Of a DNA stretch of 64,000 bases, positions 10,253 through 33,233 are shown in pieces; positions within the stretch are counted from its first letter, which is position 1, and the number at the start of each line of letters is the position of its first letter. The stretch is from Gammaproteobacteria bacterium (GTDB lineage: Bacteria > Pseudomonadota > Gammaproteobacteria > Eutrophobiales > Eutrophobiaceae). A program made the translations under genes and the position numbers. The notes beneath the pieces were generated by a model that had not been told where the DNA came from, ran no database searches, and saw nothing but the letters and a program-made list of their open reading frames with translations. The stretch lies in assembly GCA_965116495.1 (NCBI GenBank), contig OZ220696.1, forward strand, positions 2,304,001 to 2,368,000, in the 5' to 3' direction.

Positions 10253-10271
10253 ACATAAACTGGAGGTTGTT

Positions 10272-12000: not shown

Positions 12001-12038
12001 AATATGCAAAAAAGTCGGGATATTGACGAATTCACTTT

Positions 12039-12062
12039 GGGGACGGACTTGAGTCCGTCCCC
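12039..12062. repeat. GC-rich hairpin (REP-like or metK terminator)
   Basis: ggggacggact-tg-agtccgtcccc, 25 nt downstream of the metK stop. Confidence 0.6.
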
Positions 12063-12086
12063 GGACCGGCCACAGGCATTCCGATC

Positions 12087-13503: not shown

Positions 13504-13575
13504 ACTGGCCGTTAAACACTTAGTTAAAGTAGTTTAATCCGCTTATAAAATTTTCAACTCGTGAGGAGGATAGAT

Positions 13576-13827
13576 ATGAAAAGTGGCGACGACATGCTAA
13601 GACAACTCGTTGATAAATCCGCTGCTGACGCGGCGTTCAGGCAACAACTTCTCTCTGATCCCAAGACTGCCATAACCGCTGAGTTGGGCATTACCATGCC
13701 CGAATCGATGAATGTTGTGGTACATGAAAGCGACATGCAAACTGTTCACGTTGCTTTGCCGCCGGATCCGAATATCACCGAGGAACAACTCGAAGCCGTT
13801 TCGGCCGGCCTTTGCTGCTGCTGGTAA
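13576..13827 (+). CDS. srpE: NHLP-leader (proteusin) RiPP precursor, core LCCCW; SrpE-like
   Basis: Nitrile-hydratase-like leader (DAAFRQQLLSDPK...VVVHE...HVALPP), double-glycine-type site ITEEQLEAVSAG, core LCCCW. The core matches my recall of the sponge-microbiome srp precursor. Confidence 0.92.
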   Translation: MKSGDDMLRQLVDKSAADAAFRQQLLSDPKTAITAELGITMPESMNVVVHESDMQTVHVALPPDPNITEEQLEAVSAGLCCCW

Positions 13828-14162: not shown

Positions 14163-15281
14163 TTACTGGTAAACCGCCCCGGAAAGCACCATAAATACAT
14201 AGGCCTTGGCTTTTCGAAGCTGATTGTCTGATATGACCAGCTTCACATGGTGAATGCCCCGCAGCATAATATAACGCCCGGACTTCGCAAAAAGCGGTGT
14301 CGGTTTTGAGACCCAGCCGGCTAGCGCCTTGATCTTGTCGGAAAACACAATATCCTCATGGTCCAGGGCTTCCAGGAAGGGTGCCCAATCGGTCAAACCG
14401 TCAAGCCAATAGCGCGAATCCTTGGTATATCTCTGCTTTACAATGAGTGTGAGACCAAGCGTCGGACCAATTCCATCCTCCTGCACGTCAATATTCAATC
14501 CAATCCTGACAATGTTCACGCGGTCTGTGAAGCGTGAAATCACTGAATCGACGGCTGTGATCTGACCGGGCCAACCCGTATCTTCCAGGTATCGGGCTAC
14601 CTCCTGCTTCGATTTGAAGCCCATGACAGCGAGGCGAATTGCCCGAGAGCGGGACGGAAATACTCCAAACGAGTCCATGCGCGTATCTTCCGGCTGCGCA
14701 AGGTAAGCTTGTTGGAGGTACTTCCGTTCTGCGTCGTTAATCTCCCAGCCTACGCAGGAAGCGAGTGCGTCACTCACCATAACGACGTCATCTTCCTGAC
14801 CGTTGGCGCCGGTAATCGGGCGTTCGCCGGGCCGCAAGAACATTCCGGGGAAAGAACCTTGTCCCTCCCGCGCAGATCCTATGTCATATTCCAGCATAAG
14901 TTTCTGACCGACAATTTCACGCAGGGGTGAGTTTTCGGTTTCCATTTGCTCGCAGGCCCGCACAATTGCGCCGGCGGTCTCATCTGTGTTATCGGTCCGT
15001 GCGCACTCCCGGAAAAACTCTGCCGACCTGGTTCCACCGGCCAGGGAAGCGCCGAAATCCGCCTCCGGTTTGGGCGAATGCAACGGCAGTTCGAAGCCGA
15101 ATGGCAAAGCGGCCATTGTAATCGGAAGTTTTCCGGCGCAGTCGAGTATGCATTCCCATTCAGATGCCCCGATAAGAACCGGCGAAATCCTGTCCCGAAA
15201 GTGCCCAAGCAAATCACCCATGGTGCCGCCTTCCTCGGCGAGACGTTCCTGGGTAAGAATCACAGCTTCGTCAATATTCAT
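14163..15281 (-). CDS. Putative RiPP prenyltransferase (ABBA-barrel-like); function inferred
   Basis: 372 aa with GFELPL..ADF, MLEYD, F.SR..IRL, YL...GW, LNIDV..GP.LG, HHVKLV..KAKAY. Alternating alpha/beta pattern; ATGA overlap with the terpene-cyclase-like gene. Confidence 0.5.
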   Translation of the reverse strand: MNIDEAVILTQERLAEEGGTMGDLLGHFRDRISPVLIGASEWECILDCAGKLPITMAALPFGFELPLHSPKPEADFGASLAGGTRSAEFFRECARTDNTDETAGAIVRACEQMETENSPLREIVGQKLMLEYDIGSAREGQGSFPGMFLRPGERPITGANGQEDDVVMVSDALASCVGWEINDAERKYLQQAYLAQPEDTRMDSFGVFPSRSRAIRLAVMGFKSKQEVARYLEDTGWPGQITAVDSVISRFTDRVNIVRIGLNIDVQEDGIGPTLGLTLIVKQRYTKDSRYWLDGLTDWAPFLEALDHEDIVFSDKIKALAGWVSKPTPLFAKSGRYIMLRGIHHVKLVISDNQLRKAKAYVFMVLSGAVYQ

Positions 15282-16588
15282 ATGGTCTTCTCCAGCAGGA
15301 ATTCAACCAGACGCTCCAGGGCTTCGATGCAAAATGCGGAAGTCACCGATTCGGAACCATGCCCAATCTGCCCTACCAGACCCCACTTCAACTCCTGATC
15401 GCCAAACGCGAGAAACTCCGGCCAACTGCCGTCCTCACGTTGCGAGTTCAGGAACCTTTTCACCTGGTGTTCTGCGTCGATGCTTTGCAGGCTTCCAATA
15501 TTGTAGAGAGCAGACACTGCCTGGGCAGTCTGGAGGATATTGCCGAATTCCCCCTTCCCGTCGCGCAGGCCGAGGATACCATCCGCAAGCGCCGGGCGTA
15601 ACCGGTCAAGAGCGGACGGCACGCGCAGCAGGGCGCGGGTGATTGCATAGTAGATTGAGATCGAATCAGGATACCACTTGGACGTTCCATCCAGGCTGTC
15701 TTCAATGATCAAACCTTCCAGCCATTGCCGGGCTTCCCTGGTTTCCGGACGCTCACCGAGATAGGCAATGACATTCGCATTAACCACAGGATCGGCTTCG
15801 ATACGAAAAGTAGATACTACATCAGGTTCATCATCCGCGAGTATCCAGGTCTGGAAAAGACCTTTTTCGTCGCGATTTGCCAGAATTCCCGGGACATTCC
15901 TTTCCAGCAATATCCAGGGGTGATTCCCGATGACAAGTGAGCAGACTGTGGAACTATCGAGGTCCTGCGGCAGATGTCGGTAGTAGCGCCATAATCCGGG
16001 ATATTCCATGGTATCGACAAGATACGCCCTGGTGGTGGCACAAATGGCTTTAGCCTTCGGTTCATCACAGCCTTCCAGGGCAAGTACACAGAATGCCGAA
16101 ATAAACGGGGGTCTTTCGAAATGCCTTGGGATGTTCGGGTCGGCTATATTGAAACGGATGCAGTGCCAGGCCCCGTTTTCATCGATCCCGGATTCCAGGA
16201 AATCGAGACCGCGACGGATGCTTTCCCTGCATGCATCGGCAAGCGTCCCGGGCGTGGCGTTGGATAACAAGGCGCCTGCGCCACCCGGTTCGGGAGGGCG
16301 GACAGGCGGCGCCGGATCATAAAGTGTCTTGCGCAGGAACTCGAGTGATTGTGAGCCGGTTCTCGCCTCCTGCCGTTCAGCCGCGCTGAATTTGCTGCGC
16401 GGCGGAAGCGCCAGATGCGCAACGGAAACGGTATCTTCGTGCACGCGAATCTCATGATCTTCGTCCAAGGTCACACCAAGTTCCTCTTCGATGGTTTCTT
16501 TGGGTTTCTCAAGCAAACGATTGCGAAGATCATCGTCTTCGACGGCTCTTGATATGAGGTAATTAATTGTGTGAACAGGATACTTCAC
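15278..16588 (-). CDS. NHLP-leader domain fused to class II terpene cyclase-like (prenyltransferase/squalene oxidase repeat) domain
   Basis: Residues ~1-78 mimic the precursor leader (EDDDLRNRLLEKPKETIEEELG..IRVHED..AHLALPP). Then GLDFL..IDENGAW, GLWRYY..LPQDLDSST (DxDD position), DPVVNANV, SQREDGSW (QW motif), GSESVTSAFC. Confidence 0.75.
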   Translation of the reverse strand: MKYPVHTINYLISRAVEDDDLRNRLLEKPKETIEEELGVTLDEDHEIRVHEDTVSVAHLALPPRSKFSAAERQEARTGSQSLEFLRKTLYDPAPPVRPPEPGGAGALLSNATPGTLADACRESIRRGLDFLESGIDENGAWHCIRFNIADPNIPRHFERPPFISAFCVLALEGCDEPKAKAICATTRAYLVDTMEYPGLWRYYRHLPQDLDSSTVCSLVIGNHPWILLERNVPGILANRDEKGLFQTWILADDEPDVVSTFRIEADPVVNANVIAYLGERPETREARQWLEGLIIEDSLDGTSKWYPDSISIYYAITRALLRVPSALDRLRPALADGILGLRDGKGEFGNILQTAQAVSALYNIGSLQSIDAEHQVKRFLNSQREDGSWPEFLAFGDQELKWGLVGQIGHGSESVTSAFCIEALERLVEFLLEKTI

Positions 16589-16595: not shown

Positions 16596-19544
16596 TCAGG
16601 CGACCTGCCTCTTTACCAGTTCTTTGAATACTCCTTCCTCCTCCATGAGTTCGTTGAAGGATCCGCTCTGCACAACTTTTCCGGCCTGCATCACAAAGAT
16701 TCGATCAGCCTGTTGCAATGAGGACAGGCGGTGGGCGATAACGATCCGGGTCGAGGTGAGGAGCGCCAGGTTCTGCATGACCTCGGCCTGGTTTTCGTTA
16801 TCGAGCCAGTTGGTTGCCTCGTCAAGCAGCATGACCCGCGGGCTGGCGAGCAGTGAACGGGCGATGGTGACGCGCTGGCTCTCGCCACCCGAAAGGACGG
16901 CGCCGCTGGACCCGACCATGGTCATCATGCCCATGGGCATCGCCTTGATTTCCTTTTCTATTCCGGCGGCACGGGCCGTCTGCCACACTTCCTCTGTTGT
17001 CGTCGGCTCGTGGTGCGCGACGATATTGTCCCAAACATCCTGGGGATGGAGACGCACTGACTGCGGCACCGAGCCAACTTTCCGGCGCACTTGCTTCAGG
17101 TTCAGGTGCCTCAGGTCACGCCCGTCATAATAAACCGCGCCGGCAGTTGGCGAATCGATGCCGAGGGCAAGCCGGAACAAGGTACTCTTGCCGGCGCCGG
17201 ACTCGCCGGCGATCGCGATAAATTCGCCGGGTCGCGCGCGAATAGTGACATCGTCGAGGATCAACGGGCCGTCGGGATCGTAGCGAAAGGAAATACGGTC
17301 GAACAGGACTTCGCCGCCCAGACGTTCAACCGGCTCACCTTCAACGGCTGCTTCAGGAACTGTGGCGAGCAGCGGGCGCATCTGGTCGAACGCCGGCAGC
17401 ATGGCGGCAATAGCGCCGAAGGACTCGCCAAGGCGGGCGATTGCGGACTGGAAAGCGATGAAGACAACGTAAACGACGAGAAAATCGCCGACAGGAACGT
17501 TGCGGTCACCCACCGCGGCCACTGCGAAAAGCAATGCCCCGCCGGCGAGAAAGGGGAGCGCGGCAGCGAATGCCCGCGAGTGCCCCTCAAGTGCGCCCAG
17601 TTCGATTTCTGCGCGTTTCTGTTCGCGATAATCCCGGGCCCAGATGGCGAATGCCGACCCTTCCGCATTTTCCACACGCAGCTTGGCGATGCCTCCCACG
17701 ATCTGGAACAGCCGGCCGGATACACGACGTACAGCGCTGATCATCCGCCCGTACGGTGCAACCTGGCGCAACCCAATGGCGACGGTGACCAGCAGGGAAA
17801 CCAGGCTGAAGCCAAGGGCGATGACCCCGAGGGTGGCATCGTAGAAGAAGATGACGCCAAAAACCGGCAACAGGAAAATGATCGACAGCAGGCTGTCGGC
17901 GATGACTCCCTGCAAGCCGTCGCGAAGATTCTGGAATGTCATCCCCGACATGGCCAGGTCGCCGGCCGGATAGCGGTGCAGAATGCTTGACGGTAGGCGC
18001 ATGAGGCGGTCCCAGAAGGCAGCTTCGACCCTTGATGCCGAACGCCCCTCGAGCCGCATCAGCGCCGATCCCTGCAGCAGGTGCAGCAGTGCGCCGAGCA
18101 GGCCGAACGCCGCCAACGTCACGGCCACGGCATACAGCGCGCCGGCGCTTCCCCCCCCGCCCCCGATATGATTCGCAACGAAACCAAGCGCAACTGCCGG
18201 CAGCAGTTTGACCAGGCCGCCCGGAAGCCCGGCCAGCACCAGCCGCAGTAGGTCCGCGGCCGTTCCTTGCATGGCGATCCCCAGCAGGTCTGCCGGTTTT
18301 ACGGGTGCCGACGGCAATGGCCGGTAGAACACCCAGGCTTCGTCCTTCAGCGCCTCAGCACGAGCCGCCGTAACCCGAACGCTGCGCTTGGTGACCGGAT
18401 CAACTTCCCGGTAGCGTCCGAACATTCCCGGTATCAGTGCGACCGGCTGGTCGTCCCCGGCGCGGAATGCCAGTAGTGCGTTGCTGTCACTGCGCCACCA
18501 GTTGCCCGCGGCCTCGAAGCGCACGCGCCGGGCGCGTACCCCTGACGAATCAAGCACGTCTACGAGGCGGATCGGTGAATCCGAAGGTCGGGAGCGCGCT
18601 GGAATCCTGAAATCGATGCCTTCATGACGGCCGACGATTTGCAAGGCATCCGCCAGCACCGTGTCCTCGACGCTGGCCTCCCGGTCGATCGGCAGGTCAT
18701 AGATATTGAAAAGCCGCTGCCGGGCAGCTTGTTCGGCCGTGCGGCGGCTGGTTGTCCGCTCGCGCTCGAGATTCGCATCATCGACCACGGCCAGTCGGCG
18801 ATTAAGGCGTTCCAGGTTAAAGGCAAGCGCGTGAAAGGAGGCGAGCGCCGGCAGCAGCATGCCTTGCTGGGCCAGTGTTTCGGTTGATTTGCCGGAAACT
18901 GTCGCCTCGTCGAACAAGGTGAGCCAGTTCGTCCGCGTCAGTGGTATCAACGCTTCGCGCGAGCCGCCTGTCTCGGCAAGTTGCGCCGGGTCGACCATAT
19001 CCATGAACAGGCTTGCTCCGAGGGACGGTTCGGACACCCATACCACGCCGCGTCGCACGGACAGCGTACAAGGGCCCAGTGACTGCGTCAGACCGGGTTC
19101 GGCCAGCGCAGTCGGTCGCGGCAGGTGGCTGACGAAACGCGAAAGTGTGTCAGTCATGTCGGTGAGCCAGGTATCGGCCTGTTGCGCCAGTTCTGCCGGA
19201 TGAACCTCGGACAGCAGGGATGCCGGCAGCCGTTTCAGAAGGGTGCCCGGCAACCCCTTGGCGATCAGGCTGAGCGTGGTGACTTTGCCATTGTCGTCCT
19301 GTTCGTCCGCTACGACACCCGGCAACAACCTGCCCGATTCGCAACGCAGCAGGTGCTGCGGCGCCGCCTGCTCTACCCCGTCCCTGAATTCGACCAGGAA
19401 CAGATCGACGGCACCCTGGTCAATGAACCAGACATTGTCCGCATCGTCGAGCGTTACCGGCAGGTTGCCGGCGCAAGGCACGGATGTGCCGGAGTGGGCG
19501 GCAAGCCGGCTTATTGATGCGTGTTCCGGCATGGCGTCCTGCAT
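16596..19544 (-). CDS. NHLP bacteriocin system ABC transporter permease/ATPase
   Basis: N-terminal cNMP-like region, membrane domain, GESGAGKS, LSGGESQR, LLDEAT; companion of the peptidase-ABC. Confidence 0.9.
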   Translation of the reverse strand: MQDAMPEHASISRLAAHSGTSVPCAGNLPVTLDDADNVWFIDQGAVDLFLVEFRDGVEQAAPQHLLRCESGRLLPGVVADEQDDNGKVTTLSLIAKGLPGTLLKRLPASLLSEVHPAELAQQADTWLTDMTDTLSRFVSHLPRPTALAEPGLTQSLGPCTLSVRRGVVWVSEPSLGASLFMDMVDPAQLAETGGSREALIPLTRTNWLTLFDEATVSGKSTETLAQQGMLLPALASFHALAFNLERLNRRLAVVDDANLERERTTSRRTAEQAARQRLFNIYDLPIDREASVEDTVLADALQIVGRHEGIDFRIPARSRPSDSPIRLVDVLDSSGVRARRVRFEAAGNWWRSDSNALLAFRAGDDQPVALIPGMFGRYREVDPVTKRSVRVTAARAEALKDEAWVFYRPLPSAPVKPADLLGIAMQGTAADLLRLVLAGLPGGLVKLLPAVALGFVANHIGGGGGSAGALYAVAVTLAAFGLLGALLHLLQGSALMRLEGRSASRVEAAFWDRLMRLPSSILHRYPAGDLAMSGMTFQNLRDGLQGVIADSLLSIIFLLPVFGVIFFYDATLGVIALGFSLVSLLVTVAIGLRQVAPYGRMISAVRRVSGRLFQIVGGIAKLRVENAEGSAFAIWARDYREQKRAEIELGALEGHSRAFAAALPFLAGGALLFAVAAVGDRNVPVGDFLVVYVVFIAFQSAIARLGESFGAIAAMLPAFDQMRPLLATVPEAAVEGEPVERLGGEVLFDRISFRYDPDGPLILDDVTIRARPGEFIAIAGESGAGKSTLFRLALGIDSPTAGAVYYDGRDLRHLNLKQVRRKVGSVPQSVRLHPQDVWDNIVAHHEPTTTEEVWQTARAAGIEKEIKAMPMGMMTMVGSSGAVLSGGESQRVTIARSLLASPRVMLLDEATNWLDNENQAEVMQNLALLTSTRIVIAHRLSSLQQADRIFVMQAGKVVQSGSFNELMEEEGVFKELVKRQVA

Positions 19545-21754
19545 CAGCCTGATTTGACCAGTTTGTAATACATGCCGGCCTGGTCCGCAATCAACTCGTC
19601 GTGGGTGCCGCGCTGCACTTCGGCGCCCTTGTCGAGTACTATGATCTCATCACAATCCCGCACCGTGCTCAGCCGGTGCGCCACGATCAGGCAGGTGACA
19701 CCGCGACGCCGTAAGGCATCATCCACATATTCCTCCGTGGCGGCATCGAGTGCGCTGGTCGCCTCGTCCAGAATGAGCACTGTCGGATTGCCCACCAGCC
19801 CGCGGGCGATTTCCAGCCGTTGTCGCTGGCCGCCGCTGAAATTCGCCCCGCCTTCCTCGACGAGGGTCGCGTATCCATGCGGCCTGATCAGGATTTCCTC
19901 ATGGATGCAGGCATCCCGTGTTGCGGCAATGATGACTTCATCCGGAACGGCCGGGTTCCACAAGGTGATATTGTCTCGCACGGACGCGGAAAACAGCACG
20001 GCCTCCTGGTCCACCATGGAAATGGACCGCCGCAGTACTTCCTCGGGGATCTCATCCCGCGGATGGCCATCTAGCAGTATTTCACCAGACCATGGCTGAC
20101 TGATTCCCGAAACGAGACGCGCCAGGGTCGACTTGCCGGAACCGCTTGGACCGACCACGGCAACCCGCTGCCCCGGTTTGATCACGAGGTTGAAGTCCTT
20201 GATCAAGGGCGGTCGGCTCTTGTTGTAACCGAAGGTGACGTTGCGCAATTCGAGACTGCCCGCAAGCTGTAGCCGGCCGTTGAACGTGGGGATTGCCTGC
20301 GCTTCCGGACTGCGGCGGCTGAACACGGGGTCTTCAGCGGTCCTGGAGATGTCATCCAGCCGTTGCAAATCGGTTTCGAGCGCCTGGCGTTTGTCGGCGA
20401 ACTCCAGAAACCGCCCAACCGGCGCCAGAAACATCTCTGCCAGTATGTAGAACCCGACCAGCGCCCCCAGGGTCATTGCTCCGGTCATGACCAGGCTCCC
20501 CCCAAACCCCAGGATTGCCGCGGCGCGAAATGCCGCGATCAGGCCGGGAAGCGCGCTATTGACGGCGCCCAGTTCGGAGTAGCGTTGGCGCGCATGAAGT
20601 TCGCTTGCCTGCTGGCCGCTCCAGCGCGAAAAAAAACGATCGTCCGACCCTGTCATGCGCAGGTTATCCGCATGACTCAACATCTGCATACCAACGCCGA
20701 TCAGCAATCCCTGCTCGCGCCTCATTGCCTGGCTTCGAACTTCCCTGAGCGCGCTCAGGAAGCGGGCCAGCACTCCGTGCAGGAGAGCCAGCAACAGCAC
20801 GATCAGCGTTAGCAGGACATCGTAGGCCAACATCGCGACAAGCAACACTGCGCTCATGGCCATGTCTACAATGAGCACAAGAAACTGCTCCGTCAGGTTT
20901 TTCGCGATGCGATCGATGGACGAGACCCGGTCGGTGAGGTCGCCGGCCAGCCTGTGTTCAAAAAACTCCACCGGCAGCCGCAGCAGCCGCGACAGGCCCC
21001 GGTTGTAGCCGATCACCGAAACCCGGACCGCGAGCCGCTTGAGGAAACGGTGCTTGAGCAAGGTCAGGACGTATACCAGGATGCCGCCGCCAATCAAGGC
21101 GGCCACCAATCCGCCCCAGGGTCCGTGGTTTTCCAGAACGTCGTCTACGAAAACACCGAGAGTTGCGGGAACGACAAGCGCCAGCAACGTCAACATGAGG
21201 CCACAGGCAATCACCCCGGTAAGCACGCCCCACGATTCGGCGAGCAAGGCGCCCAGTTGCCTGACTAGGTTTGGCCGGTCACCGCCGGGCTTGAAATCGG
21301 GACCGCACTTGAAGCGAAGCATAATCCCGCTGTAGCCCTTGGTAAACTCTTCTGCGCTAACCCTGCGTTTCCCTGTGGCAGGGTCATTCAGGTAGAAACT
21401 TTGGCCATCGAACCCTTCGAGCACAACGAAATGGCTGAATTGCCAGAATAAAATCAGCGGAAGCTCCACCCGTTTCAGCTGATCGGCGCGCAGGCTGAGC
21501 CCTTTGCATTCAAGACCATAGTACCTGGCGGCGCGCAGGATGCTTGCCGCACTGCTGCCGTCACGGCTCACTTCACATTTATCGCGTAATTCAGTCAACG
21601 GCGCCCAGCGCCCGAAATAAGCCAGGACGATCCCGAGACAGGCGGCGCCACATTCCGACGCATGCATCTGCAACAGAACCGGTGTGTTGACCTTCTTTTT
21701 CAAAACGTCCGAAGACGCCTTATCCCTGGCTCCCTTGGGGGCGCTCGATGGCAT
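19544..21754 (-). CDS. NHLP export ABC transporter with C39 peptidase domain
   Basis: QMHASECGAACL, HFVV, NDPA (C39 Cys-His-Asp), GPSGSGKS, FSGGQRQR. Confidence 0.93.
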   Translation of the reverse strand: MPSSAPKGARDKASSDVLKKKVNTPVLLQMHASECGAACLGIVLAYFGRWAPLTELRDKCEVSRDGSSAASILRAARYYGLECKGLSLRADQLKRVELPLILFWQFSHFVVLEGFDGQSFYLNDPATGKRRVSAEEFTKGYSGIMLRFKCGPDFKPGGDRPNLVRQLGALLAESWGVLTGVIACGLMLTLLALVVPATLGVFVDDVLENHGPWGGLVAALIGGGILVYVLTLLKHRFLKRLAVRVSVIGYNRGLSRLLRLPVEFFEHRLAGDLTDRVSSIDRIAKNLTEQFLVLIVDMAMSAVLLVAMLAYDVLLTLIVLLLALLHGVLARFLSALREVRSQAMRREQGLLIGVGMQMLSHADNLRMTGSDDRFFSRWSGQQASELHARQRYSELGAVNSALPGLIAAFRAAAILGFGGSLVMTGAMTLGALVGFYILAEMFLAPVGRFLEFADKRQALETDLQRLDDISRTAEDPVFSRRSPEAQAIPTFNGRLQLAGSLELRNVTFGYNKSRPPLIKDFNLVIKPGQRVAVVGPSGSGKSTLARLVSGISQPWSGEILLDGHPRDEIPEEVLRRSISMVDQEAVLFSASVRDNITLWNPAVPDEVIIAATRDACIHEEILIRPHGYATLVEEGGANFSGGQRQRLEIARGLVGNPTVLILDEATSALDAATEEYVDDALRRRGVTCLIVAHRLSTVRDCDEIIVLDKGAEVQRGTHDELIADQAGMYYKLVKSG

Positions 21755-22591: not shown

Positions 22592-24865
22592 TCACGCAAT
22601 TACAGGGACGGGATTCAGTTCAGCCTCCCCGGTGGGGCAATCCCGCCAGCCCATCTCAACCGGTACGTCATATAGGCGTCCCGGTGCGAAGCGTTCCCAG
22701 AAGTGACGCAGGCCCGGCACGATCACGCGCGCCACGGGCATACCGATGTCAGGCCGGGTCTGGTCGAGCACCAACAATTCCATCCCCCTCACTTCGACCA
22801 ACCCACGGCACCATTCCACATCGTCTCTCAGGTCTTCCGTATCCGGAACCGAATAATCGGAACTCTGGCTCAACCTGGCATCGCCTGCAGGCGCGAGATG
22901 GGGGTGGTCGGCCAGTTTGCCGTTCTTCCACCACCACAGACACATCGGATCATCGACCCCGTACCCGCTTTGAGCATTGCCCGGGCGAGGGACCCAGGTG
23001 AGGCACTGGTTCAATTCACACACGGCCCGCAGCGCCGCAATCCGGGGGTCGGCGTGTGCGCCTGCGCCATAGATGATGTCTTCGGCCACGCCATCGTTGC
23101 TGCGGGACAGTGCAACAAAGGCAGGAATTCCAAGGTCGCCGGTAAGGTCCAGCAGCCACATTTCGCGATTGTATTGATGATAATAACCTGGGGCAGATGC
23201 CAGGTACTCGTCAGCAAAGCTATCCAGGTCCACTCCGGGCCTTTGCAGCCGGTTGTACCACCAGATTGCGACGGCATCGCGTTCGACCAGTTCAAAAAAC
23301 CCCTGCAGAACAGCTTCTTCCAGGGTGTTCCCGGCTGCACAGCCGTTGGAGTCGGACCAAAGCCCCGAGGTTCCCCGCTGCTCCGGAGTCATTCCGTAGA
23401 GGATGGCTGTCGGTAACCAGCATTGCCGGTCCCGGGTGAGCGACCATACCGGAGACCAGTCCAGTTCATGCTCCGGGTCGAAGCGCGCCGGAACGACATT
23501 ATACGGGTGGCCGCGTGCGTTGATCTCTTGCGCATGGTCCAGTTGCCGGTCGCTGAACAACTGGACGTCGTTCGGGTGGATCGCCTCTCCATCCGCCGCT
23601 CCGGAAAAATCCGCCAGGCGCCTGCGGCAACGGATTTCATCACCGTGGAAAGCGCCGGAATAGCGCTCGACCGCTTCGCACAGCGCACTGACCTCGGATT
23701 GCTCCGCGCTGCTGCCCTTACCTGCACTCTTGCTGCGCAGGCTGCGCCGCAATGAGCTCAGGTTCTTGATTCTCAAGGCAAGATTGCTGCCCGCCCAATG
23801 TACATGCAGCCAGGAGTCTGTTCCGGGAGTTGTGCGTGAAACCCAACTGACCACTCCACTCACCGGACTGACCAGGTGCCGGTACTTTTCAAGCGTCTCC
23901 GCAGGTGTAGCCGCCCGCACTCCGCCGCTGTTGCGAAACTGTTTCGGGCTCGCCTGCAATCGCACCGGCGTCGCCGGCCGATCAGTTTTATAGAGTTCCT
24001 CGTTTCCGCAGACCGGGCATTGCGGACGGCGCATGACCCGGTGATGTTCACTTTTCATGCCGACAACATCCAGTGTGATCGCATGGTCATGCAACGGCGC
24101 CGCATCCCCAAGGACAAACCACCTGGCGATCTCAATGGCAACAGTTCCGCTGACGACATCCAATGCCAGGGGTTCGGCTACGTTCGGACGAAACGCGGCC
24201 GCCTCGCCACAGTGATTTCGCACAAAGGAATGGACCTCCTGGTGGTTTCGAATACGGTAGGAAAGGCAGGCCCAACACGGACTTTTCTGCGCAGGCCGGA
24301 ACACAGGGCCAAACAGCGGTCGTAATCCTGCAGGCCGGACCAGCACCCATGGGATGCCCGATTCCAGGTGCTCCCGGTTGACGGCGGCAAACTCATCATC
24401 AAGATAGTCGGAACCTGCGTAAATGGACAGGGACGGGCGGTTTGTACCGACTGTAATACCCATGCCCTCAAGCCGTGTCGCGAGACGGCCGTCGTCACCC
24501 TGGATTACTACCTGCGCTTCCTGCAATCGCTCTTCAACCTGGCGCGGGGATGCACCCTGCGAGGACCAGAATGCCGCCCTGCCCCGTTCCATGTCATAAT
24601 CGCCGGATACGGTGTATCCCCTGGATTCCAGGAAAGTCAGGGCTTTGCGGACATCCGTCTCCGGATGCACCCCGTCTAGCGCATCAACAATACTTTCCCG
24701 GGAACGGCAACCGTCAAGCAACGGCAGGAGATCCCCATATACCTGCCCATGCAGGAGCGTGTTGAATGTTTCGGAAACCAGGAGCACCTGCCCGGCGCCG
24801 ATAGAGCGGTGCTCAAGGTGCGGCGCAAGCACCGGCCGTTCAATCTGGTGCGGATTAACAGCCAA
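22592..24865 (-). CDS. srpC: Fused E1-like/YcaO cyclodehydratase (TOMM C-D fusion), SrpC-like
   Basis: N-terminal RRE-like region, GPVF..PCWACL, RRPQCPVCG, YcaO motifs SAGKG, EAVERYS, SNGCAAG, ELVERD, RAVCELNQ, RVIVPGL, Pro-rich C-terminus NPVPVIA. Confidence 0.92.
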   Translation of the reverse strand: MAVNPHQIERPVLAPHLEHRSIGAGQVLLVSETFNTLLHGQVYGDLLPLLDGCRSRESIVDALDGVHPETDVRKALTFLESRGYTVSGDYDMERGRAAFWSSQGASPRQVEERLQEAQVVIQGDDGRLATRLEGMGITVGTNRPSLSIYAGSDYLDDEFAAVNREHLESGIPWVLVRPAGLRPLFGPVFRPAQKSPCWACLSYRIRNHQEVHSFVRNHCGEAAAFRPNVAEPLALDVVSGTVAIEIARWFVLGDAAPLHDHAITLDVVGMKSEHHRVMRRPQCPVCGNEELYKTDRPATPVRLQASPKQFRNSGGVRAATPAETLEKYRHLVSPVSGVVSWVSRTTPGTDSWLHVHWAGSNLALRIKNLSSLRRSLRSKSAGKGSSAEQSEVSALCEAVERYSGAFHGDEIRCRRRLADFSGAADGEAIHPNDVQLFSDRQLDHAQEINARGHPYNVVPARFDPEHELDWSPVWSLTRDRQCWLPTAILYGMTPEQRGTSGLWSDSNGCAAGNTLEEAVLQGFFELVERDAVAIWWYNRLQRPGVDLDSFADEYLASAPGYYHQYNREMWLLDLTGDLGIPAFVALSRSNDGVAEDIIYGAGAHADPRIAALRAVCELNQCLTWVPRPGNAQSGYGVDDPMCLWWWKNGKLADHPHLAPAGDARLSQSSDYSVPDTEDLRDDVEWCRGLVEVRGMELLVLDQTRPDIGMPVARVIVPGLRHFWERFAPGRLYDVPVEMGWRDCPTGEAELNPVPVIA

Positions 24866-25367: not shown

Positions 25368-26312
25368 ATGAGCAATTCAGCCGACAAGTGGTTATACTAT
25401 GGTGACCATCAGGACACCCCAACCTTGAACACCACTCGCGAAATACCTCTTTCCGAGCATGAACGCTCGGTAATTGAACACTACGACAAAATGACCAGGG
25501 TGTTCTATCTCCAGTGGAGTTCCGAGCATTTTCATTTCGGTGTATTCAAGCCCGGGGAACGCCCCAGGCACAACGAGACTCCGAAAGAATCGGACGGACA
25601 TGCAAGAGCACTGGAGCGCATGGTGGAAGTCATAGTTGCCCCAGCCGGGATTGAGGGACACCATCATGTGGTGGACGCCGGGTGCGGAGTGGGCGGAACT
25701 GCCTTTCACCTGGGCAGGACGCGGGACTGCAAGGTCACGGGCGTGAACCTGAGCAAGACGCAACTGGAGATTGCCAGAAGTAAGGCAGTTAATGCCGGCC
25801 TGGGTGATCGGATAGACTTTAAGTACGCGAACTGTTCCCGGAGTCTGCCGTTCGCAGATGGCTCCGTGGACGTGGTTGTCAATATCGAAAGCGCCCGTCA
25901 CTACAGTGACCGAAGAACATTTCTCCACGAGGTATACAGGATCCTGAAACCGGGAGGAAGCATTGTGGCTTCAGACTGGGTGGTGCATGACGTAATACCG
26001 GACAGCCAGCACAAACGTTACATTCAACCGTTATGCGAGGACTGGATGCTGTATAACCTGGAGTCCCAGTCCTCGTACACCCGGTTGCTGCAGGAAGCGG
26101 GTCTGGAAGTGATTGAATTTGAGGGATTCAACGGAATGGAGTTTGACAACCTGCATCTCCTCACAAACACCTACCAGTCCCTGGGACTGCTGCGAACCGG
26201 TTACATGAAGTCGCCTGTTTTCGCCAAACTGATGACTCAGCTGGAAAGATTGTGTGTTGCCTGGCGACACAGTTACCTGGGCATCAAACGCTACTGCGCC
26301 GTGAAAGGTTAG
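25368..26312 (+). CDS. Class I SAM methyltransferase, sterol C24/tocopherol/RebM-like
   Basis: HYD...W..HFHFG, VVDAGCGVGG, VTGVNLS..QL, LPFADGSVD, ESARHY, EVYRILKPGG. Confidence 0.85.
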   Translation: MSNSADKWLYYGDHQDTPTLNTTREIPLSEHERSVIEHYDKMTRVFYLQWSSEHFHFGVFKPGERPRHNETPKESDGHARALERMVEVIVAPAGIEGHHHVVDAGCGVGGTAFHLGRTRDCKVTGVNLSKTQLEIARSKAVNAGLGDRIDFKYANCSRSLPFADGSVDVVVNIESARHYSDRRTFLHEVYRILKPGGSIVASDWVVHDVIPDSQHKRYIQPLCEDWMLYNLESQSSYTRLLQEAGLEVIEFEGFNGMEFDNLHLLTNTYQSLGLLRTGYMKSPVFAKLMTQLERLCVAWRHSYLGIKRYCAVKG

Positions 26313-26339: not shown

Positions 26340-28757
26340 TCAGGCATTGAAGAGTGCGTCGATGTCGGTAGCGGCGCGTGTTGCCGTTACTTTAATCGCG
26401 GCGCTCAGTGCATCGAAGTCGTCTGTTCCGCAGCTTCTGGCAATGACTGTCCTGGCCATCGGCCAGGTGGCATTATCCACGTTGTTATCTTCTCCCAGCA
26501 AGCGCAGGATGCCGCGCAGGTTGCGCCACATTCTTGCCGCCTCAGCCAACCGTTGCGCGCAATCGTCAGGTATCACCTCACCCTCGCCGGCGCTCTGGAA
26601 TACGGAAACCGTACCTGCGGCAATAACCTCCGGCGCCGTTGCAGCATGGGTCACAGTCAGATATGCGGCAGCGCGTTCTACCTCCCGGAGACCGCCGCGC
26701 ATATTCTCGAATGATTGCAGTCCGGCCTCCGGCGTGCCCTCCCCTGCCTGACGCAATTCATTCAGCAACGCATCACGAGCGGCGCCATTGGCCAGGATTT
26801 CAAGGCGCGTATCCTCAAACCGTTTTCCCAGCCCGGCATCCCCTGATGTAAAAACACAGCGCGACCGTAAGAGTTCCAGCAACTCTCCTGTTGAGGAGTT
26901 GCTGTAATGGTGTTCCGAAAAGTCAGCGAGAGAACGGACAATTGTCTCAGCCCTGCCCGGCAACATCGGCTGCAACAGCAGGTTGTCCCGTGACAGGGCG
27001 CGCAACGCGTCGAGAGAGCGCTCGCTCAATGTCCTGTAATAATCGGGTGAGCCACTGCCGTCATAAAGGAACATGATGCCAAGCCCGGCGCCCAGCGTCG
27101 CTTCTCCACTTGCAATCTCTCCCAGAACCACTGCCGCCACACCGCCTTCGAGCCGCCGCTGGGTAAAATCCTCCACCGCAGCCGAGAGAACACCGGCGAT
27201 CGAGGCCTCAGCAATGTTGGACAGCGCCGTCCCCGCTTCAACCGGTGACAGGTTGCCGCGCAATGTGTGCATGGCAACCTGCAGGACCTTGTCGTTCGAC
27301 CAGTTGCGCATGATCTCTACCGCATCTTTCGTGTCCTGCACCGGGATATCTGCAACCTGCTCCTTCATTTCTTCAGCAGTGAATTCCAACGTCCAGTACA
27401 CGCGCGTCAGACCGCGTCGAGCAATTAATTCAAACTCGGGACTCGGCCCGAATCCGTCCGGCAGGTCAAGATCGGTGAATTCCCTGTCCTGAAGGATGTC
27501 GAGCAACGCCGGGGTACGGTTTATCCATTCGGAAAGCCGTGGCGATGCTGCCATGATCGCGGAAATTGTATCGAACATATCCGGACGCGCGTCGAATGCA
27601 GGGCTGTCGTAAACGTTCCAGTCCTTGACCTCCGGATAATAACGCTGCCTCCACTTGTCGACCAACGGGTCCATCGTCTCGAACCAGCGGCGGGGGGACA
27701 TCGCCAGGCCGCCCATTTTGCCGTAGGGCCCGGGCAGTTGCGGCGATTGATCCTCACCCCAGTGCTGTAACAGCGGATAAGGCCGGCTTGCAGCGGCATG
27801 GTGGTCGGCATGGCGCTGCGCGTTGTAATAGATCCAGTTGAAAAACCTGTAGTCGCTGCTCCAGGAATGTTGCGGCTGGGGTCGCTCGAAGCGGCCGTTG
27901 GGAAGGCGGATACGCCGTAATCCGTAATGCTGGACATAGTTGATGATCTTCATTGACAGGACCGAACTGGCGCTGAACATCAGGAATGCCAGGATTCCCC
28001 AGATACCGCCGAACCAGTATCCGAGGGCATACCAGAACGTAACCATGAGGAAATAACGCCAGAACGGATTGGTGTAATGCCAGACCGGGAGGTGGCGGCG
28101 CGCCAGCCTGTCGCGCTCGAAACGCCAGGCTACGACGAGACTGTTCGCCACGTCCCGGGGGAAATATTCCCAAAAGCTCTGCCCCTTGCGCGCCGAGCCG
28201 AGATCTGCAGGCGTGGCGACCAGGGGGTGATGTATATAGACATGCTCCGTGGCGTAGTGCGGGTAGGTGACCGAAGCCAGCAGGAACTCGCCGAACCTGC
28301 GCTCCCATTCATAGCGCTTATGTACCAGCTCATGACCGATAATGAACACCATCTGGGACGCCATGCCGAGAGCAAATATCATCAGCACGGCCTCCCACAC
28401 GGCCAGGTGGCCGCCAATAAAAATCTGCCAGAGTACGAATACGAGGACCACCGGCCACAGTACGGCCCACATCCATACAGCCAGGTTGTATACGTACAAC
28501 TGGCTGTCACGGGTACCCCACGGATCCATGTTGCGTTCTTCCAGGCCTAAATGGAGATCGAGCCTGTTCTCAAGCCAGACAAACAGGAACGGCCCCATGA
28601 TCCACCAGCCCCCGTAAAGCGCTGCACAAATCACCAACGGGAAAATCAACAGGAGCAGGTAATGCGGGAGCGCATTCAGGACCGACGGCTGGACAAACTC
28701 CTGCCCGCCGACGGTTTCGGCGCTCGTGCCACCAGGGTCCGCGCTATACTCTGCCAT
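26340..28757 (-). CDS. AlkB-type membrane diiron monooxygenase/desaturase fused to a degenerate GlnE-like nucleotidyltransferase domain
   Basis: All AlkB His boxes present (GHELVH, EHVYIHH, NYVQHYG, QRHADHH). The C-terminal ~420 aa carry GlnE-like motifs (LSNIAEA, VVLGEIASGE...IMFLYD, RGGLREVE, LAEAARMWRNL..ILRL). Confidence 0.85.
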   Translation of the reverse strand: MAEYSADPGGTSAETVGGQEFVQPSVLNALPHYLLLLIFPLVICAALYGGWWIMGPFLFVWLENRLDLHLGLEERNMDPWGTRDSQLYVYNLAVWMWAVLWPVVLVFVLWQIFIGGHLAVWEAVLMIFALGMASQMVFIIGHELVHKRYEWERRFGEFLLASVTYPHYATEHVYIHHPLVATPADLGSARKGQSFWEYFPRDVANSLVVAWRFERDRLARRHLPVWHYTNPFWRYFLMVTFWYALGYWFGGIWGILAFLMFSASSVLSMKIINYVQHYGLRRIRLPNGRFERPQPQHSWSSDYRFFNWIYYNAQRHADHHAAASRPYPLLQHWGEDQSPQLPGPYGKMGGLAMSPRRWFETMDPLVDKWRQRYYPEVKDWNVYDSPAFDARPDMFDTISAIMAASPRLSEWINRTPALLDILQDREFTDLDLPDGFGPSPEFELIARRGLTRVYWTLEFTAEEMKEQVADIPVQDTKDAVEIMRNWSNDKVLQVAMHTLRGNLSPVEAGTALSNIAEASIAGVLSAAVEDFTQRRLEGGVAAVVLGEIASGEATLGAGLGIMFLYDGSGSPDYYRTLSERSLDALRALSRDNLLLQPMLPGRAETIVRSLADFSEHHYSNSSTGELLELLRSRCVFTSGDAGLGKRFEDTRLEILANGAARDALLNELRQAGEGTPEAGLQSFENMRGGLREVERAAAYLTVTHAATAPEVIAAGTVSVFQSAGEGEVIPDDCAQRLAEAARMWRNLRGILRLLGEDNNVDNATWPMARTVIARSCGTDDFDALSAAIKVTATRAATDIDALFNA

Positions 28758-28865: not shown

Positions 28866-29040
28866 CGTCATTCCGGGCTTGTCCTGGAATCCTGTGGAAT
28901 ACTGCGTCGCCCACGGGGCGACCCGTTGTATTGACTGGATTCCCGCGTACGCGGGAATGACGAAAGAGACGCGGGAATGACGAAAGAGACGCGGGAATGA
29001 CGAAAGGGACGCGGAAGTGACAAATGGGGAGCGGGAATGT
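28866..29040. repeat. GTCATTCC/GGAATGAC palindromic element with 20-bp tandem expansion
   Basis: cgtcattccggg...ggattcccgcgtacgcgggaatgac; the unit gcgggaatgacgaaagagac occurs twice perfectly, once with one mismatch, then degenerates (28951-29040). Related unit at 41911-41938. Confidence 0.85.
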
Positions 29041-29048: not shown

Positions 29049-32000
29049 CTATCCCGCCGTTCTTGAACTGTAAGCCATAAACGTCCGGTACAAGAGTGGA
29101 ATAACGAACAGTGTCAGCAACGTGGAAAACACCAGTCCATACACAATCGCAGTTGCCACGGGCCCCCAGATCAGCGATTCGCCGGCGAAGCCGGTCGCCA
29201 GCGACAGCAGGCCCGCCACCGTAGTTCCAGAGGTGATGATGATAGGGACTACCCGCCTCCTGGCGGCATAGACCGTGGCATGCAGCAGGCTCATGCCGTT
29301 TTCCAGACGGAGGTTCGCCGCGGAGATCAGGACGATGGCGGCGTTGACTGAAATCCCCGTCAAGGCCACCACGCCGTACATGGTAAACAGGCTCAGGGGA
29401 TTTCCGGTCACCAGCAGGCCCAGGGTAACGCCGGTGAATGTCAGCGGCACGGTGGCAAGCACCATGAACGGCTGGAAGTAACTGCGGAACTGGGTGCCCA
29501 GGATGATATAGATGATACCCAGGCCAAGCAGCAGCAAGCGCCAGATGGCATCCAGGCTTTCATCGATATCTTCAAGTTCACCGGTCTGGTCCAGGGACAG
29601 CTCGGGATACCTGGCCTGCAGGCTGTGCCATTTTTCCGTGATGAGATTATTGGCCTGTACGGTATCGATTCGATCCTTGTCAATATCGCTTTCCAGCGTA
29701 ATGGCCCGGCGGAAGTTATAGTGCCGTATGTTTTGCCGGCCGATGCCCGGGCTGCTGATCAGCAGTTCACCCAGGGCGATGGAACGTCCGTCGGGCAGGG
29801 AGATTGTCTGGCGCATGAGGTTGTCGGTATTGATATGCCGGTCCTTTTTCGCCAGCACCCGGACTTTTACTTCCTCGCCTTCATCCTGGAAGTCCGTAAC
29901 CAGTTCACCGTCCACGTAAGCCTGCAATGCCCGCCCTATGACTGCAGGATTCAATCCTGTCCTTTGTATCGCCTCTCCGTCGAGACGCAGCACCAGTTCC
30001 GGGTTGCCGGGACGATAATCCAGGGTGATGTTTCTATACACCTGCTGCTCCTCAAGAAAATCACGCAAGTCATTAGCCGCTTGCAGCATGGTCGAATAAT
30101 CACTGCCCAGAATCTTGGCGCTGACAGCCTTGCGCGCCGGCGGGCCTCCCTTTATTTCCAGGATGGAGACTTCTATGGGTCCCGGTATGTTTCTCACACG
30201 CCGGAAGACCGCATCGGCGATCTCGGAGACATGGCGACCGTCGCTGGCTTGCGGGTTCAGACTGAACATGACCTGGCCCACGGTGTCGCCGAATAACGGC
30301 GCGGTTTCGGTAAACTGCTGCCCCGCAAAACTGACCGACGCGCGCAGTTCACCCGGAAGCAATTCCTTCAGGGCCTGCTCCTCTGCCGTTACCAGGGCGC
30401 GGCTGGTGTCTTCCAGGGATGTTCCCCGGGGCATCTCGAGATTTACGTAAAATATGCGTTCGGCATCGGATTCGAAGAAATTGAAACGAATCAGGCCGCT
30501 GGCTACCGTACCTGCCGCCAGGGACAGGGTCAATACTATGCAAACCAGGGTTATAACCGGGTGGCGCAGGGAATATACCAGCGCCTGGGTATAGCGCAGA
30601 CGCAACCAGTAACTGACCGCTTCCCGCTTCCTGCTTATGGATCCGGGTTTCCTGAAATTGACTTTCAACGCCAGCACGTGGGCCGGCAGAATCCAGTAGG
30701 CCTCAAACAGGCTGACGAGCAGGGCAATGGTCACCACCAACGGGATGACCTTCATGAACTCTCCCAGTACGCCCGGCAGCATTACCAGCGGCAGGAAGGC
30801 GGCGATGGTGGTCATTACCGAGGTGGTAACGGGAGCGAATACTTCCCTGAAAGAATCGATAATGGCAGCCATGGCCTCGGCGCCCCGCTGCAGGCGATAG
30901 TAAACGGCCTCGACGACGACCACGGCGTCATCCACGATCATACCCAGGACGATTACGACGGCAAGCAGCACGGTATTGTTCAGGGTAAAACCAGTGGCGT
31001 TAAGTACCAGAAAAGTGCCGGAAAGCGTGAACGGAATTCCGATGGTGGTCAGAAAGGATATCCGCGTTCCCAGGAACAACCAGGTGACCAGCAGGACCAG
31101 GAACAGGCCGATAAGGGCGTTGGTCTGCATTATGGTAAGGGCTTCGCGGGTACTGACGGTCTGGTCGTCCGCCAGGATGAGTTCTACGCCGGTTGTGTCC
31201 TTGAAACGGTTACGGTTGTCGAGGTATTCATTCAGTGTATCCACCAGTTCCAATACGTTGGCATCCGGGTTCTTGGTGACCGTCAGGAGCATGGCGGGTT
31301 TGCCCTGGTACGTTACCATCTCTGCCGCCTCTTCCCGGGTGCGGGTCAATTCCGCGATGGTCCCCAGGGGCACCACGCCGGCAGCGGTGATGATGGGGAA
31401 ATCCCTCAGGGTTGAAGGGTCGGGGCTGGTTCCCTGCAGGCGCACGACCCACTTACCGTCGGCAGTCTCAAGGTCGCCGGCGGATATGTCCCGGAAATAG
31501 CTGCGGATCGTCTCGGAGATATCCGCAGGGGTCAGGCCCAGTCCCTCGAGGCGGTCGGGAAAAAAAGCAATCTGCAATTCCGGGTCGGTGGTGCCGACGT
31601 CAGCCACCCGGTCTACGCCCTGGATACGTTCCAGGTCTTTTTTTACGAAACGGGCCTGGCGCCTGAGATTTTCATCATCCCCCGCGCTGGTCACCACCAC
31701 CATCGCGCTGGGGAACGCGTTGGAGGTACTGATCTCGAAGACCACCGGGTCTTCGGCATCTTCCGGCAGCTCATCGGTATAGGTATTCTGCACTTCGCGC
31801 CGCAGGTCGATCATCCGCTTGTCAAATCTCTCCTGGTCGATCTGGTTGAAGCGCACCAGGATCATGGAAACATTATCCCGGCTGGTGCTGTTGACGAACT
31901 TGATATCCCTGACACTGCGCCGCAGGGCGTCTTCGAGGGGTTCGGTCACGCGTTTTTCCACGTCGACAGCGGCGGCGCCCGGGAAAACGGTGAAGACGTT

Positions 32001-32135
32001 GACCCAGTTGAAGTTCAGTTCCGGATCCTTGGCCCTGGGCATGTCCAGGTAAGCAAACACCCCAAGGAAGATAACCAGGCCGAACGTCAGGTTCGCCAGT
32101 ACGTGGTTGGATAAGAACCGCCTGATGAAATCCAT
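29049..32135 (-). CDS. RND efflux permease (copy 2)
   Basis: 1028 aa, NHVLANL start, GMIVDDAVVVVE proton-relay motif, RRVVPIIITS, 12-TM layout. Confidence 0.93.
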   Translation of the reverse strand: MDFIRRFLSNHVLANLTFGLVIFLGVFAYLDMPRAKDPELNFNWVNVFTVFPGAAAVDVEKRVTEPLEDALRRSVRDIKFVNSTSRDNVSMILVRFNQIDQERFDKRMIDLRREVQNTYTDELPEDAEDPVVFEISTSNAFPSAMVVVTSAGDDENLRRQARFVKKDLERIQGVDRVADVGTTDPELQIAFFPDRLEGLGLTPADISETIRSYFRDISAGDLETADGKWVVRLQGTSPDPSTLRDFPIITAAGVVPLGTIAELTRTREEAAEMVTYQGKPAMLLTVTKNPDANVLELVDTLNEYLDNRNRFKDTTGVELILADDQTVSTREALTIMQTNALIGLFLVLLVTWLFLGTRISFLTTIGIPFTLSGTFLVLNATGFTLNNTVLLAVVIVLGMIVDDAVVVVEAVYYRLQRGAEAMAAIIDSFREVFAPVTTSVMTTIAAFLPLVMLPGVLGEFMKVIPLVVTIALLVSLFEAYWILPAHVLALKVNFRKPGSISRKREAVSYWLRLRYTQALVYSLRHPVITLVCIVLTLSLAAGTVASGLIRFNFFESDAERIFYVNLEMPRGTSLEDTSRALVTAEEQALKELLPGELRASVSFAGQQFTETAPLFGDTVGQVMFSLNPQASDGRHVSEIADAVFRRVRNIPGPIEVSILEIKGGPPARKAVSAKILGSDYSTMLQAANDLRDFLEEQQVYRNITLDYRPGNPELVLRLDGEAIQRTGLNPAVIGRALQAYVDGELVTDFQDEGEEVKVRVLAKKDRHINTDNLMRQTISLPDGRSIALGELLISSPGIGRQNIRHYNFRRAITLESDIDKDRIDTVQANNLITEKWHSLQARYPELSLDQTGELEDIDESLDAIWRLLLLGLGIIYIILGTQFRSYFQPFMVLATVPLTFTGVTLGLLVTGNPLSLFTMYGVVALTGISVNAAIVLISAANLRLENGMSLLHATVYAARRRVVPIIITSGTTVAGLLSLATGFAGESLIWGPVATAIVYGLVFSTLLTLFVIPLLYRTFMAYSSRTAG

Positions 32136-32165
32136 GATTTTAGTTACCGGGAACCAACTACGCGG

Positions 32166-33191
32166 TCAGCGCGGGTTATACAGGATGACCGGTTGCCCGT
32201 CCTCCAGCCTGTAATGGCCCTCTGTAATTACAACCGTGTCCGGCGGCAGATCAACCGGTGTGGTCCGGCCCTGCTGGGCGCCGGGTATGACATGAAACCT
32301 GGCTTTACCCGTGTTATTGATGAAGATGCCGAAATCATCGCCGCGCCGGACCAGCAGCTTGGCGGAGACGTGCGGCTGGCTATCCCGCCAGATGAGCTTG
32401 CCGGCGGCGCCCGGCAGCGCCTGTTCGTTGCCGAACAGCAGCCTGACTTCCCGGTTGCGGGTCTGTGTATTGACTGCCGGCGTCACCGTGCGCAAATTAA
32501 CCGGATAGCGCCTGGCCGTATCTTCGAAATAGATCTCGTCGGCCTGTTCGACCGCCTCGATGTCCAGGGTCGGGACCTGCGCCGAGATTTCCAGTTGTTC
32601 GATATCCATGATTTCCAGCAGCCTCGTTCCCATGTCGGCGAATTCCCCTTCGGCGGCCAACCGGGCGGTAACCACGGCCCGGTACGGACTCCTTACGGTG
32701 CAACGGGAAATGTTGGTTTGCGCAGTCTCCAGTTGCGCCAGGGCGCCCCGAAGTTGTGCCTGCAGGACCGCCAGGTCGGCTTCGCGCTGGTCCAGCAATT
32801 CTGCGGACGCGGTCTGCTTCCGTTCCAGTTCCCTGGTTCTTTCAAGGCGCCGTTCGGCCAACCGGATACGGGCCTCCAGTGCGCCGATATCCGCTTCGGC
32901 CTGCTGTCGGCCGATGCGGTAATCCGTGCAATCCAGCCTCACCAGCACACTGCCGGCGTCGACAACCTCGCCGACCTTCACGGAGATCCCGTCGACACGC
33001 GCCTTGATCTGGGCAGCGACGGACGTGTCATTCAGACTGACAACGGAAGCAGGCGCAGAATTCCAGAGGTAGATCGCCACGTCCTTGATACGTGCGGTTT
33101 TCACCGCGACAGCATTTTGACCGCTCGATACGAGCGGCAAAACGAGAAACAGCAGTACCAGGAATGCGTGGGTGAAAAATTTGTTAGTCAT
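32166..33191 (-). CDS. RND periplasmic adaptor (MFP) (copy 2)
   Basis: Signal peptide, VKVGEVV.AG.VLVRLD, coiled coil, VRSPY, PAVN.QTR. Confidence 0.9.
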   Translation of the reverse strand: MTNKFFTHAFLVLLFLVLPLVSSGQNAVAVKTARIKDVAIYLWNSAPASVVSLNDTSVAAQIKARVDGISVKVGEVVDAGSVLVRLDCTDYRIGRQQAEADIGALEARIRLAERRLERTRELERKQTASAELLDQREADLAVLQAQLRGALAQLETAQTNISRCTVRSPYRAVVTARLAAEGEFADMGTRLLEIMDIEQLEISAQVPTLDIEAVEQADEIYFEDTARRYPVNLRTVTPAVNTQTRNREVRLLFGNEQALPGAAGKLIWRDSQPHVSAKLLVRRGDDFGIFINNTGKARFHVIPGAQQGRTTPVDLPPDTVVITEGHYRLEDGQPVILYNPR

Positions 33192-33233
33192 AACTTCAAC
33201 CGTTTATTTTATCCGCTGTCTTCCGCATCGGGA

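Follow-up and report, generated by a model that had tools for sequence, protein, structure and literature searches.

Three described systems bear on the gene analysed here. The alkane 1-monooxygenase AlkB, known from Fontimonas thermophila AlkB and AlkB-AlkG (8sbb, 8f6t), admits small hydrophobic substrates via a membrane tunnel and uses the Glu of its NYxEHYG motif as an Fe2 ligand, according to the portion of PMC10113152 consulted; the corresponding portion of PMC10110569 puts this Glu close to iron. The half of GlnE from which the module discussed below descends acts on glutamine synthetase, as stated in the excerpts of PMC12409994 from which we take the wording of the G-X11-D-X-D motif, given there for the related SidM. 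In the sections of the srp papers used here, srp clusters comprise an NHLP precursor with an LCCCW core (SrpE), a YcaO protein (SrpC) that converts the three Cys of this core to thiazolines, NHLP exporters and a brominase (SrpI), and occur in many phyla (PMC10858898, PMC10286304, PMC12615548, PMC9426513, PMC11832590; bioRxiv 2023.06.09.544420, section 10; Nguyen et al. 2021, through citing papers). They are widespread in sponge microbiomes, with highly transcribed precursors (section 10 of the same preprint). The AlkB domain, the GlnE domain and the srp cluster are known already. The literature searched, mostly open-access, held no report of the fusion architecture, the altered diiron site or the reuse of a dead module described below; the supplements of PMC10858898 gave no text match, and the srp passages cited assign no function to an AlkB fusion or to the prenyltransferase-fold gene.

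We analysed a window (the whole stretch of DNA under study, 64,000 nucleotides) in which one gene joins an AlkB-type domain to a pseudo-GlnE half (Table 1). The gene is a single unbroken ORF, as the initial annotation had stated. An AlphaFold2 model built from 71 sequences has a pLDDT of 87 and a pTM of 0.83, and Foldseek returned six matches to it with E <0.001: two AlkB chains, three GlnE chains and DrrA. The junction near 27603 is bridged without differences by contigs from three public runs of two studies. Runs X3 and X4, from study P1, may be the source of the window itself; X5, from study P2, has a contig that reaches about 50 letters beyond the junction. An assembly artefact or one-off chimera is ruled out by these contigs and by homologues elsewhere. 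An RNA run (X19) gave two short contigs, one per half, at 95-99% identity, which cover a small share and are not taken as evidence of its expression. A promoter scan found one site (28831-28804), which is the chance level. Modelling residues 22-805 in complex with the precursor gave a score of 0.00, which counts neither for nor against an interaction. Between the neighbouring RND gene and the fusion lie short tandem repeats, imperfect and about 20 bases long (28955-29040), and an inverted repeat (28906-28922).

Table 1 Features of the fusion gene, its surroundings in the window and the second carrier of the dead module.
Feature	Position	Strand	Remark
AlkB::pseudo-GlnE fusion gene, 805 aa	26340..28757	(-)	ORF, Pfam, NCBIfam, AlphaFold2, Foldseek
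AlkB-type membrane diiron domain, residues 1-385	27603..28757	(-)	ends where nearest stand-alone AlkBs end
His box 1 (H142, H146)	28320..28334	(-)	
His box 2 (H172, H176, H177)	28227..28244	(-)	
HYG motif with H277, preceded by Gln276	27924..27941	(-)	
His box 3 (H316, H319, H320)	27798..27812	(-)	
Pseudo-GlnE adenylyl-transferring half, residues 386-805	26340..27602	(-)	
Insert of ~27 residues, about residues 432-458	27384..27464	(-)	inside best conserved block (373-460)
Degenerate G-X11-D-X-D motif, residues 546-560	27078..27122	(-)	
Site of missing third-Asp DxRLRP segment, about residues 592-603	26949..26984	(-)	
Ferredoxin-NAD(+) reductase-type gene	37381-38598	(-)	upstream of RND block; candidate electron source
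SAM methyltransferase	25368..26312	(+)	convergent to fusion; related genes in 27/72 loci
Flavin-dependent halogenase remnant (SrpI-like), first 96 codons	24873..25151	(-)	
YcaO cyclodehydratase with leader-binding part (SrpC-like)	22592..24865	(-)	
Short NHLP-system HlyD-like protein, 183 aa	21756..22307	(-)	
Two NHLP-type ABC exporters, one with C39 peptidase	16596..21754	(-)	
NHLP-leader-like segment and squalene-hopene-cyclase-like part	15278..16588	(-)	weak matches, under cut-off
372-aa protein, predicted ABBA prenyltransferase fold	14163..15281	(-)	no Pfam match
NHLP precursor with LCCCW core (SrpE-like)	13561..13827	(+)	
RND fusions (outside the window)	P0284, P0289, P0410-P0462; L073:6918-11489, L074:6612-11735, L075:8163-12734		

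The AlkB half matches the alkane enzymes. Residues 53-368 align to FtAlkB (PDB 8f6t, E 3e-55), and the predicted fold matches both structures (Foldseek, 8f6t E 2e-16 and 8sbb E 2e-12; TMt 0.73-0.77). All nine iron-binding His are present in four motifs, as in the Fontimonas enzyme, and the basic donor-docking surface is shared as well, with five of the six AlkG-docking Arg positions, mapped by alignment, still basic. The His-box set is intact, as the initial annotation stated, but the site is not fully canonical: the iron-proximal Glu of NYxEHYG (E271/E281 in FtAlkB) is Gln276 in the fusion. Among 56 intact ORFs, position 276 is Gln in 50, Glu in 4 and His in 2, while position 270 is K or R in all 56. 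The residues that position the substrate terminus in alkane enzymes are also changed, with Met269 in 49/56 in place of L274 and Met or Ala313 in 45/56 in place of L318. Judged from these residues, the pocket of the fusion AlkB differs from that of the alkane enzymes. Glu is kept by all of the nearest stand-alone AlkBs (37-48% identical), which form the sister clade, and the Glu-bearing fusion members branch first inside the fusion clade of a quick tree; thus the change to Gln likely came after the fusion. A distant second AlkB/XylM-like gene at the window's right edge (G000:C1:2367889-2368995, minus strand, 23% identity) likewise has Gln before the HYG His.

Unlike AlkB-AlkG, the fusion ends in a pseudo-GlnE half and not a rubredoxin, and it lies in a RiPP context. 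No PF00301 (rubredoxin) match was found in the window's genome, which is 99.5% complete, in a search whose control matched 7/14. The genome carries a 2Fe-2S ferredoxin.

The C-terminal half had been read as one GlnE module, and domain and structure searches agree. Pfam places GlnE at residues 459-648 and GlnD_UR_UTase at 687-796, NCBIfam PRK14108 matches residues 390-797 to model positions 574-976 (90 bits against a cut-off of 724), and residues 461-744 align to the C-terminal half of E. coli GlnE (3k7d). Foldseek finds 1v4a and 3k7d (E about 1e-10), with the nucleotidyltransferase and helical folds complete. The whole fold and the order of its elements are those of the GlnE C-terminal half (E. 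coli 3k7d, alpha-type PRK14108). It differs from GlnE in being one half only, attached to a membrane enzyme, with a degenerate D-X-D and without DxRLRP. The match begins at model position 574 of 986. GlnE's N-terminal half is absent, and so is the bulk of its central region, the PII-binding part of GlnE, a role for which no paper was found in the literature searched.

Neither Asp of the G-X11-D-X-D motif is left in the window's copy, as the initial annotation had noted, but this double loss does not extend to the family. Gly560 is nearly private to the window: the position is Asp in 106 of 120 close homologues and in 27 of the 56 intact GTDB ORFs. A true D-X-D occurs in 14/120 and 3/56, and both positions are acidic in 75/120 close homologues and 12/56 of the wider set, where 21/56 have R, H, K or C at position 560. 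E552 is retained in 116/120. The DxRLRP segment, whose Asp we take to be the third catalytic carboxylate of GlnE, was matched by regular expression in 0/56 intact GTDB ORFs and in 1/120 close homologues (a match that was not inspected), and a basic residue (K/R) follows the first Gly of the motif in 0/120 and 0/56. Of 22 intact GlnEs in the alignment, 21 have DxRLRP, one with a single change. The host's own intact GlnE has both elements, as do, with small changes, the intact GlnEs of the alignment. Since both are gone throughout the fusions, the sequences indicate that the pseudo-GlnE half is very likely catalytically dead across the whole family, which bears out the earlier call of a dead domain. 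The GG..D motif near 688-692 is kept. Conservation peaks in the helical block that holds the insert (373-460) and not in the nucleotide pocket. The insert as a novelty of the fusion was considered and ruled out, being inherited from intact GlnE.

The fusion has at least 120 full-length relatives in several phyla; the 120 homologues listed, query included, are 764-837 aa long and 55-100% identical at a query coverage of at least 95%. A GTDB scan gave 71 loci in MAGs of Gamma- and Alphaproteobacteria, Nitrospirales, Binatia, Acidobacteriota and Acidimicrobiia. The fusion is rare overall: among 400 genomes of the class that were scored, 3 carry it, the window's own genome included. One of the 71 locus titles names a sponge; the srp papers and the taxon names suggest that the remaining carriers are probably sponge symbionts too. 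Most members retain all 420 residues of the C-half, at 31-97% identity. In six loci the match stops at about residue 660, several others are broken, and many forms of 620-674 aa exist. The loci ending near 660 and these shorter forms indicate that the last helical domain is dispensable.

Across 143 pairs (dS 0.05-1) among the 56 intact ORFs, which are not independent of one another, the median dN/dS is 0.20 for the AlkB half and 0.255 for the C-half, the latter comprising 0.145 in the linker at residues 386-460, 0.27 in the NTase fold at 461-660 and 0.31 in the last domain at 661-802. These values show purifying selection on both halves and rule out neutral decay of the C-half. On the points that bore most directly on the initial annotation, the C-half matches GlnE, the fusion is not unique and its C-half is under selection, and contigs span the junction.

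The origin of the dead module was traced with a profile of the C-half against 1.84 billion representatives. Besides the AlkB fusions, the best 150 matches held two kinds of protein: intact GlnEs with the insert and AcrB-type permeases. Full GlnEs with intact motifs and the insert of about 27 residues (P0265, P0268, P0276, P0277, L072), placed ahead of the adenylyl-transferring domain, are the nearest intact relatives of the C-half (29-36% identity). An insert profile found no match in the 61 other proteins of more than 850 aa among the best 150. The L072 GlnE (9192-12293) is the sole full GlnE found in a fusion-bearing Rhodobacteraceae MAG. It adjoins a partner-switching set of STAS, PP2C, anti-sigma kinase and sensor kinase genes.

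The AcrB-type RND permeases, mostly of about 1,520 aa, have an insert-bearing dead GlnE module as their last part (54 clusters, defined at 90% identity, among 58 matches; Table 1), and DxRLRP is absent from 55/55 of these modules. An adaptor gene precedes the RND fusion in L073 and L075, the two contexts read for it. In all three contexts read the RND fusions lie outside srp genes, so the dead module is not srp-specific. They occur in 3/50 AlkB-fusion genomes, and a metagenome scan with the RND fusion as query confirmed nothing. Two quick trees place the AlkB-fused and RND-fused modules together on one side of a branch with a support of 100, adjoined in both by the insert-bearing GlnEs; both trees were made without bootstrap and may suffer from long-branch attraction. 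Read most simply, these sequence comparisons suggest that a GlnE half was detached and inactivated once and then took part in two fusions. The window itself has two adaptor-plus-permease RND pairs (29049-37369, minus strand) directly upstream of the fusion, which are kept in close relatives. An origin of the RND fusions by deletion from this RND-alkB layout was ruled out, the window's permeases being only about 25% identical to the permease part of those fusions.

The dominant context of the fusion, which like the Glu-to-Gln change is absent from the initial annotation, is a RiPP cluster. The window's locus is an srp (LCCCW proteusin) cluster, whose genes listed in Table 1 from the methyltransferase to the precursor lie downstream of the fusion, and MMPL genes and cyclase-like genes also lie within it. 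Unlike the described srp clusters, its SrpI halogenase is reduced to a remnant at a place where L001 and other close relatives carry a gene of 425 aa, and no second SrpI-like copy was found in the window's genome. Since the window has lost the halogenase and kept the fusion, the fusion is not tied to bromination. The 372-aa protein was modelled with a pLDDT of 91.5, and its best Foldseek matches are all ABBA prenyltransferases; the predicted barrel resembles those of PagF, LimF and EpzP, at only 8-14% identity and a TM of 0.4-0.5. The neighbouring fusion of an NHLP-leader-like segment to a squalene-hopene-cyclase-like part recurs next to AlkB::pseudo-GlnE in several loci.

We compared the fusion with these genes across genomes. 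In 53 of 72 loci a YcaO gene is found within 8 kb of the fusion, often directly adjacent, and 12 of the 19 other genomes have it elsewhere (one a partial match), so that 65 of the 72 fusion genomes have a YcaO match. A Cys-core NHLP precursor is found within 8 kb in 39/71 loci (40 regex matches, L022 removed as spurious) and a halogenase in 19/72, remnants included; these neighbour counts are floors, since a crude longest-ORF picker missed frameshifted loci. The 372-aa prenyltransferase-fold gene was found in 44 (one a fragment) of the 50 fusion genomes searched for it, out of 71. Within the window's genus (23 genomes), 14 have the fusion and 14 YcaO, with 13 holding both, 8 neither and 2 discordant, and 98 other relatives showed neither; co-occurrence between related genomes, and within a cluster that is mobile, does not count as independent evidence. 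Two genomes (G405, G414) have a first fusion copy apart and a second beside YcaO, and one (G430) has YcaO and the prenyltransferase gene with no fusion match.

Four loci (L011, L037, L043, L049) carry an intact, full-length fusion among unrelated genes, and no match to SrpC, precursor or prenyltransferase was found in their genomes; these are MAGs, in which no match to the query used does not equal absence. The L037/L049 pair is under purifying selection in both halves (pN/pS 0.35 for AlkB, 0.28 for the C-half). Either the cluster was lost recently from these four or the enzyme is useful without srp.

We propose, with about an even chance of being right, that the fusion serves the srp pathway as a tailoring oxidase whose substrate is a lipid or prenyl portion of the product, with the dead GlnE half as a docking module or scaffold. 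The ABBA-fold partner, perhaps together with the cyclase-like protein, would add an isoprenoid to the srp product. The AlkB domain would hydroxylate or desaturate this isoprenoid at the inner membrane, ahead of export, with electrons supplied by a 2Fe-2S ferredoxin or another donor that is not a rubredoxin, and the cytoplasmic dead GlnE module would hold a partner protein or substrate. The docking role and the lipid or terpenoid oxidation suggested in the initial annotation fit this srp context. Several points count against a tailoring role: the substrate and the prenylation of the srp peptide are both putative, four genomes keep an intact fusion without srp matches, G430 has YcaO and the prenyltransferase gene without it, the last helical domain is dispensable, the module also sits on RND pumps outside srp, and Gln near the iron could lower activity. 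Those four genomes, the pair under purifying selection among them, would suit an enzyme that oxidises a free lipid, a terpenoid, a host compound or a product of neighbouring symbionts and merely travels with the cluster, as would the small hydrophobic substrates taken by the AlkB tunnel (PMC10113152, in the portion cited above) and the cyclase-like and MMPL genes. We consider such a free substrate unlikely, given how often YcaO is present or directly adjacent and that the fusion tracks its presence or absence in 21 of the 23 genus genomes; the srp-less genomes, being MAGs, also weigh less than true absences.

The remaining alternatives concern the C-half. Its ancestry in a GlnE half that acts on glutamine synthetase (PMC12409994, as excerpted), the full fold with its GG..D motif, the reuse on two unrelated membrane proteins, which suits a regulatory unit, and a host with PII, glutamine synthetase and intact GlnE would all agree with a sensor domain that reads nitrogen status through PII, glutamine synthetase or glutamine and gates the attached AlkB or RND pump. 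The link to nitrogen status proposed in the initial annotation is nevertheless rather improbable: glnA, glnB, glnD and glnE form no group among the annotated recurrent neighbours, the fusion lacks the N-terminal half of GlnE and the bulk of its central region, G407 carries the fusion with no intact GlnE, and conservation is highest at the insert block and not at the nucleotide pocket. It is also improbable that the C-half is a passenger of an old fusion, without a ligand and kept because it packs on AlkB and must fold. The rise in dN/dS towards the C-end, the common truncated forms and the model's pTM, which suggests fixed packing of the two domains, would fit a passenger; most members, however, keep all 420 residues, and the module is whole on a second, unrelated carrier. 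That the half is still a nucleotidyltransferase or nucleotide binder in most members, and dead only in the window's copy, is very improbable: the acidic pairs in the close homologues and the near-constant E552 favour it, whereas such pairs are a minority of the wider set, where position 560 is often basic or Cys, and the third-Asp segment is missing, as are the basic residue after Gly in all members and DxRLRP in every RND-fused copy.

A wider reading, which we hold tentatively and regard as doubtful, is that the dead, insert-bearing GlnE half, detached once, would serve inner-membrane proteins of a symbiont community as a portable module on the cytoplasmic side, for docking or sensing. With it, AlkB would have become a RiPP-tailoring oxidase or desaturase with a Gln/Lys site and RND export would be gated, both carriers reading the same partner or signal.

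The fusion and the prenyltransferase-fold gene track YcaO more closely than does the well-studied brominase, and thus mark candidate missing srp steps, whose expected mass signature would be an isoprenoid plus oxygen or minus two H. As a natural Glu-to-Gln variant of AlkB, the fusion bears on the role of the iron-proximal carboxylate, and a pseudo-enzyme module on two unrelated membrane proteins, with the intact donor lineage extant, is a clean case of domain co-option.

Minor variants were seen among the loci. In P0214 (332 aa), which probably arose by deletion, the front of an AlkB domain continues as an NHLP precursor with CCCW at its end. Six loci (L014, L015, L062-L065) have variant precursor cores with four Cys, a Ser-rich core or no Trp, and some of them adjoin an azoline oxidase. 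In the window, the gene pairs at 4330-6048 and 10272-10777 (plus strand) resemble by eye HipBA-type and YefM/YoeB-type toxin-antitoxin modules.
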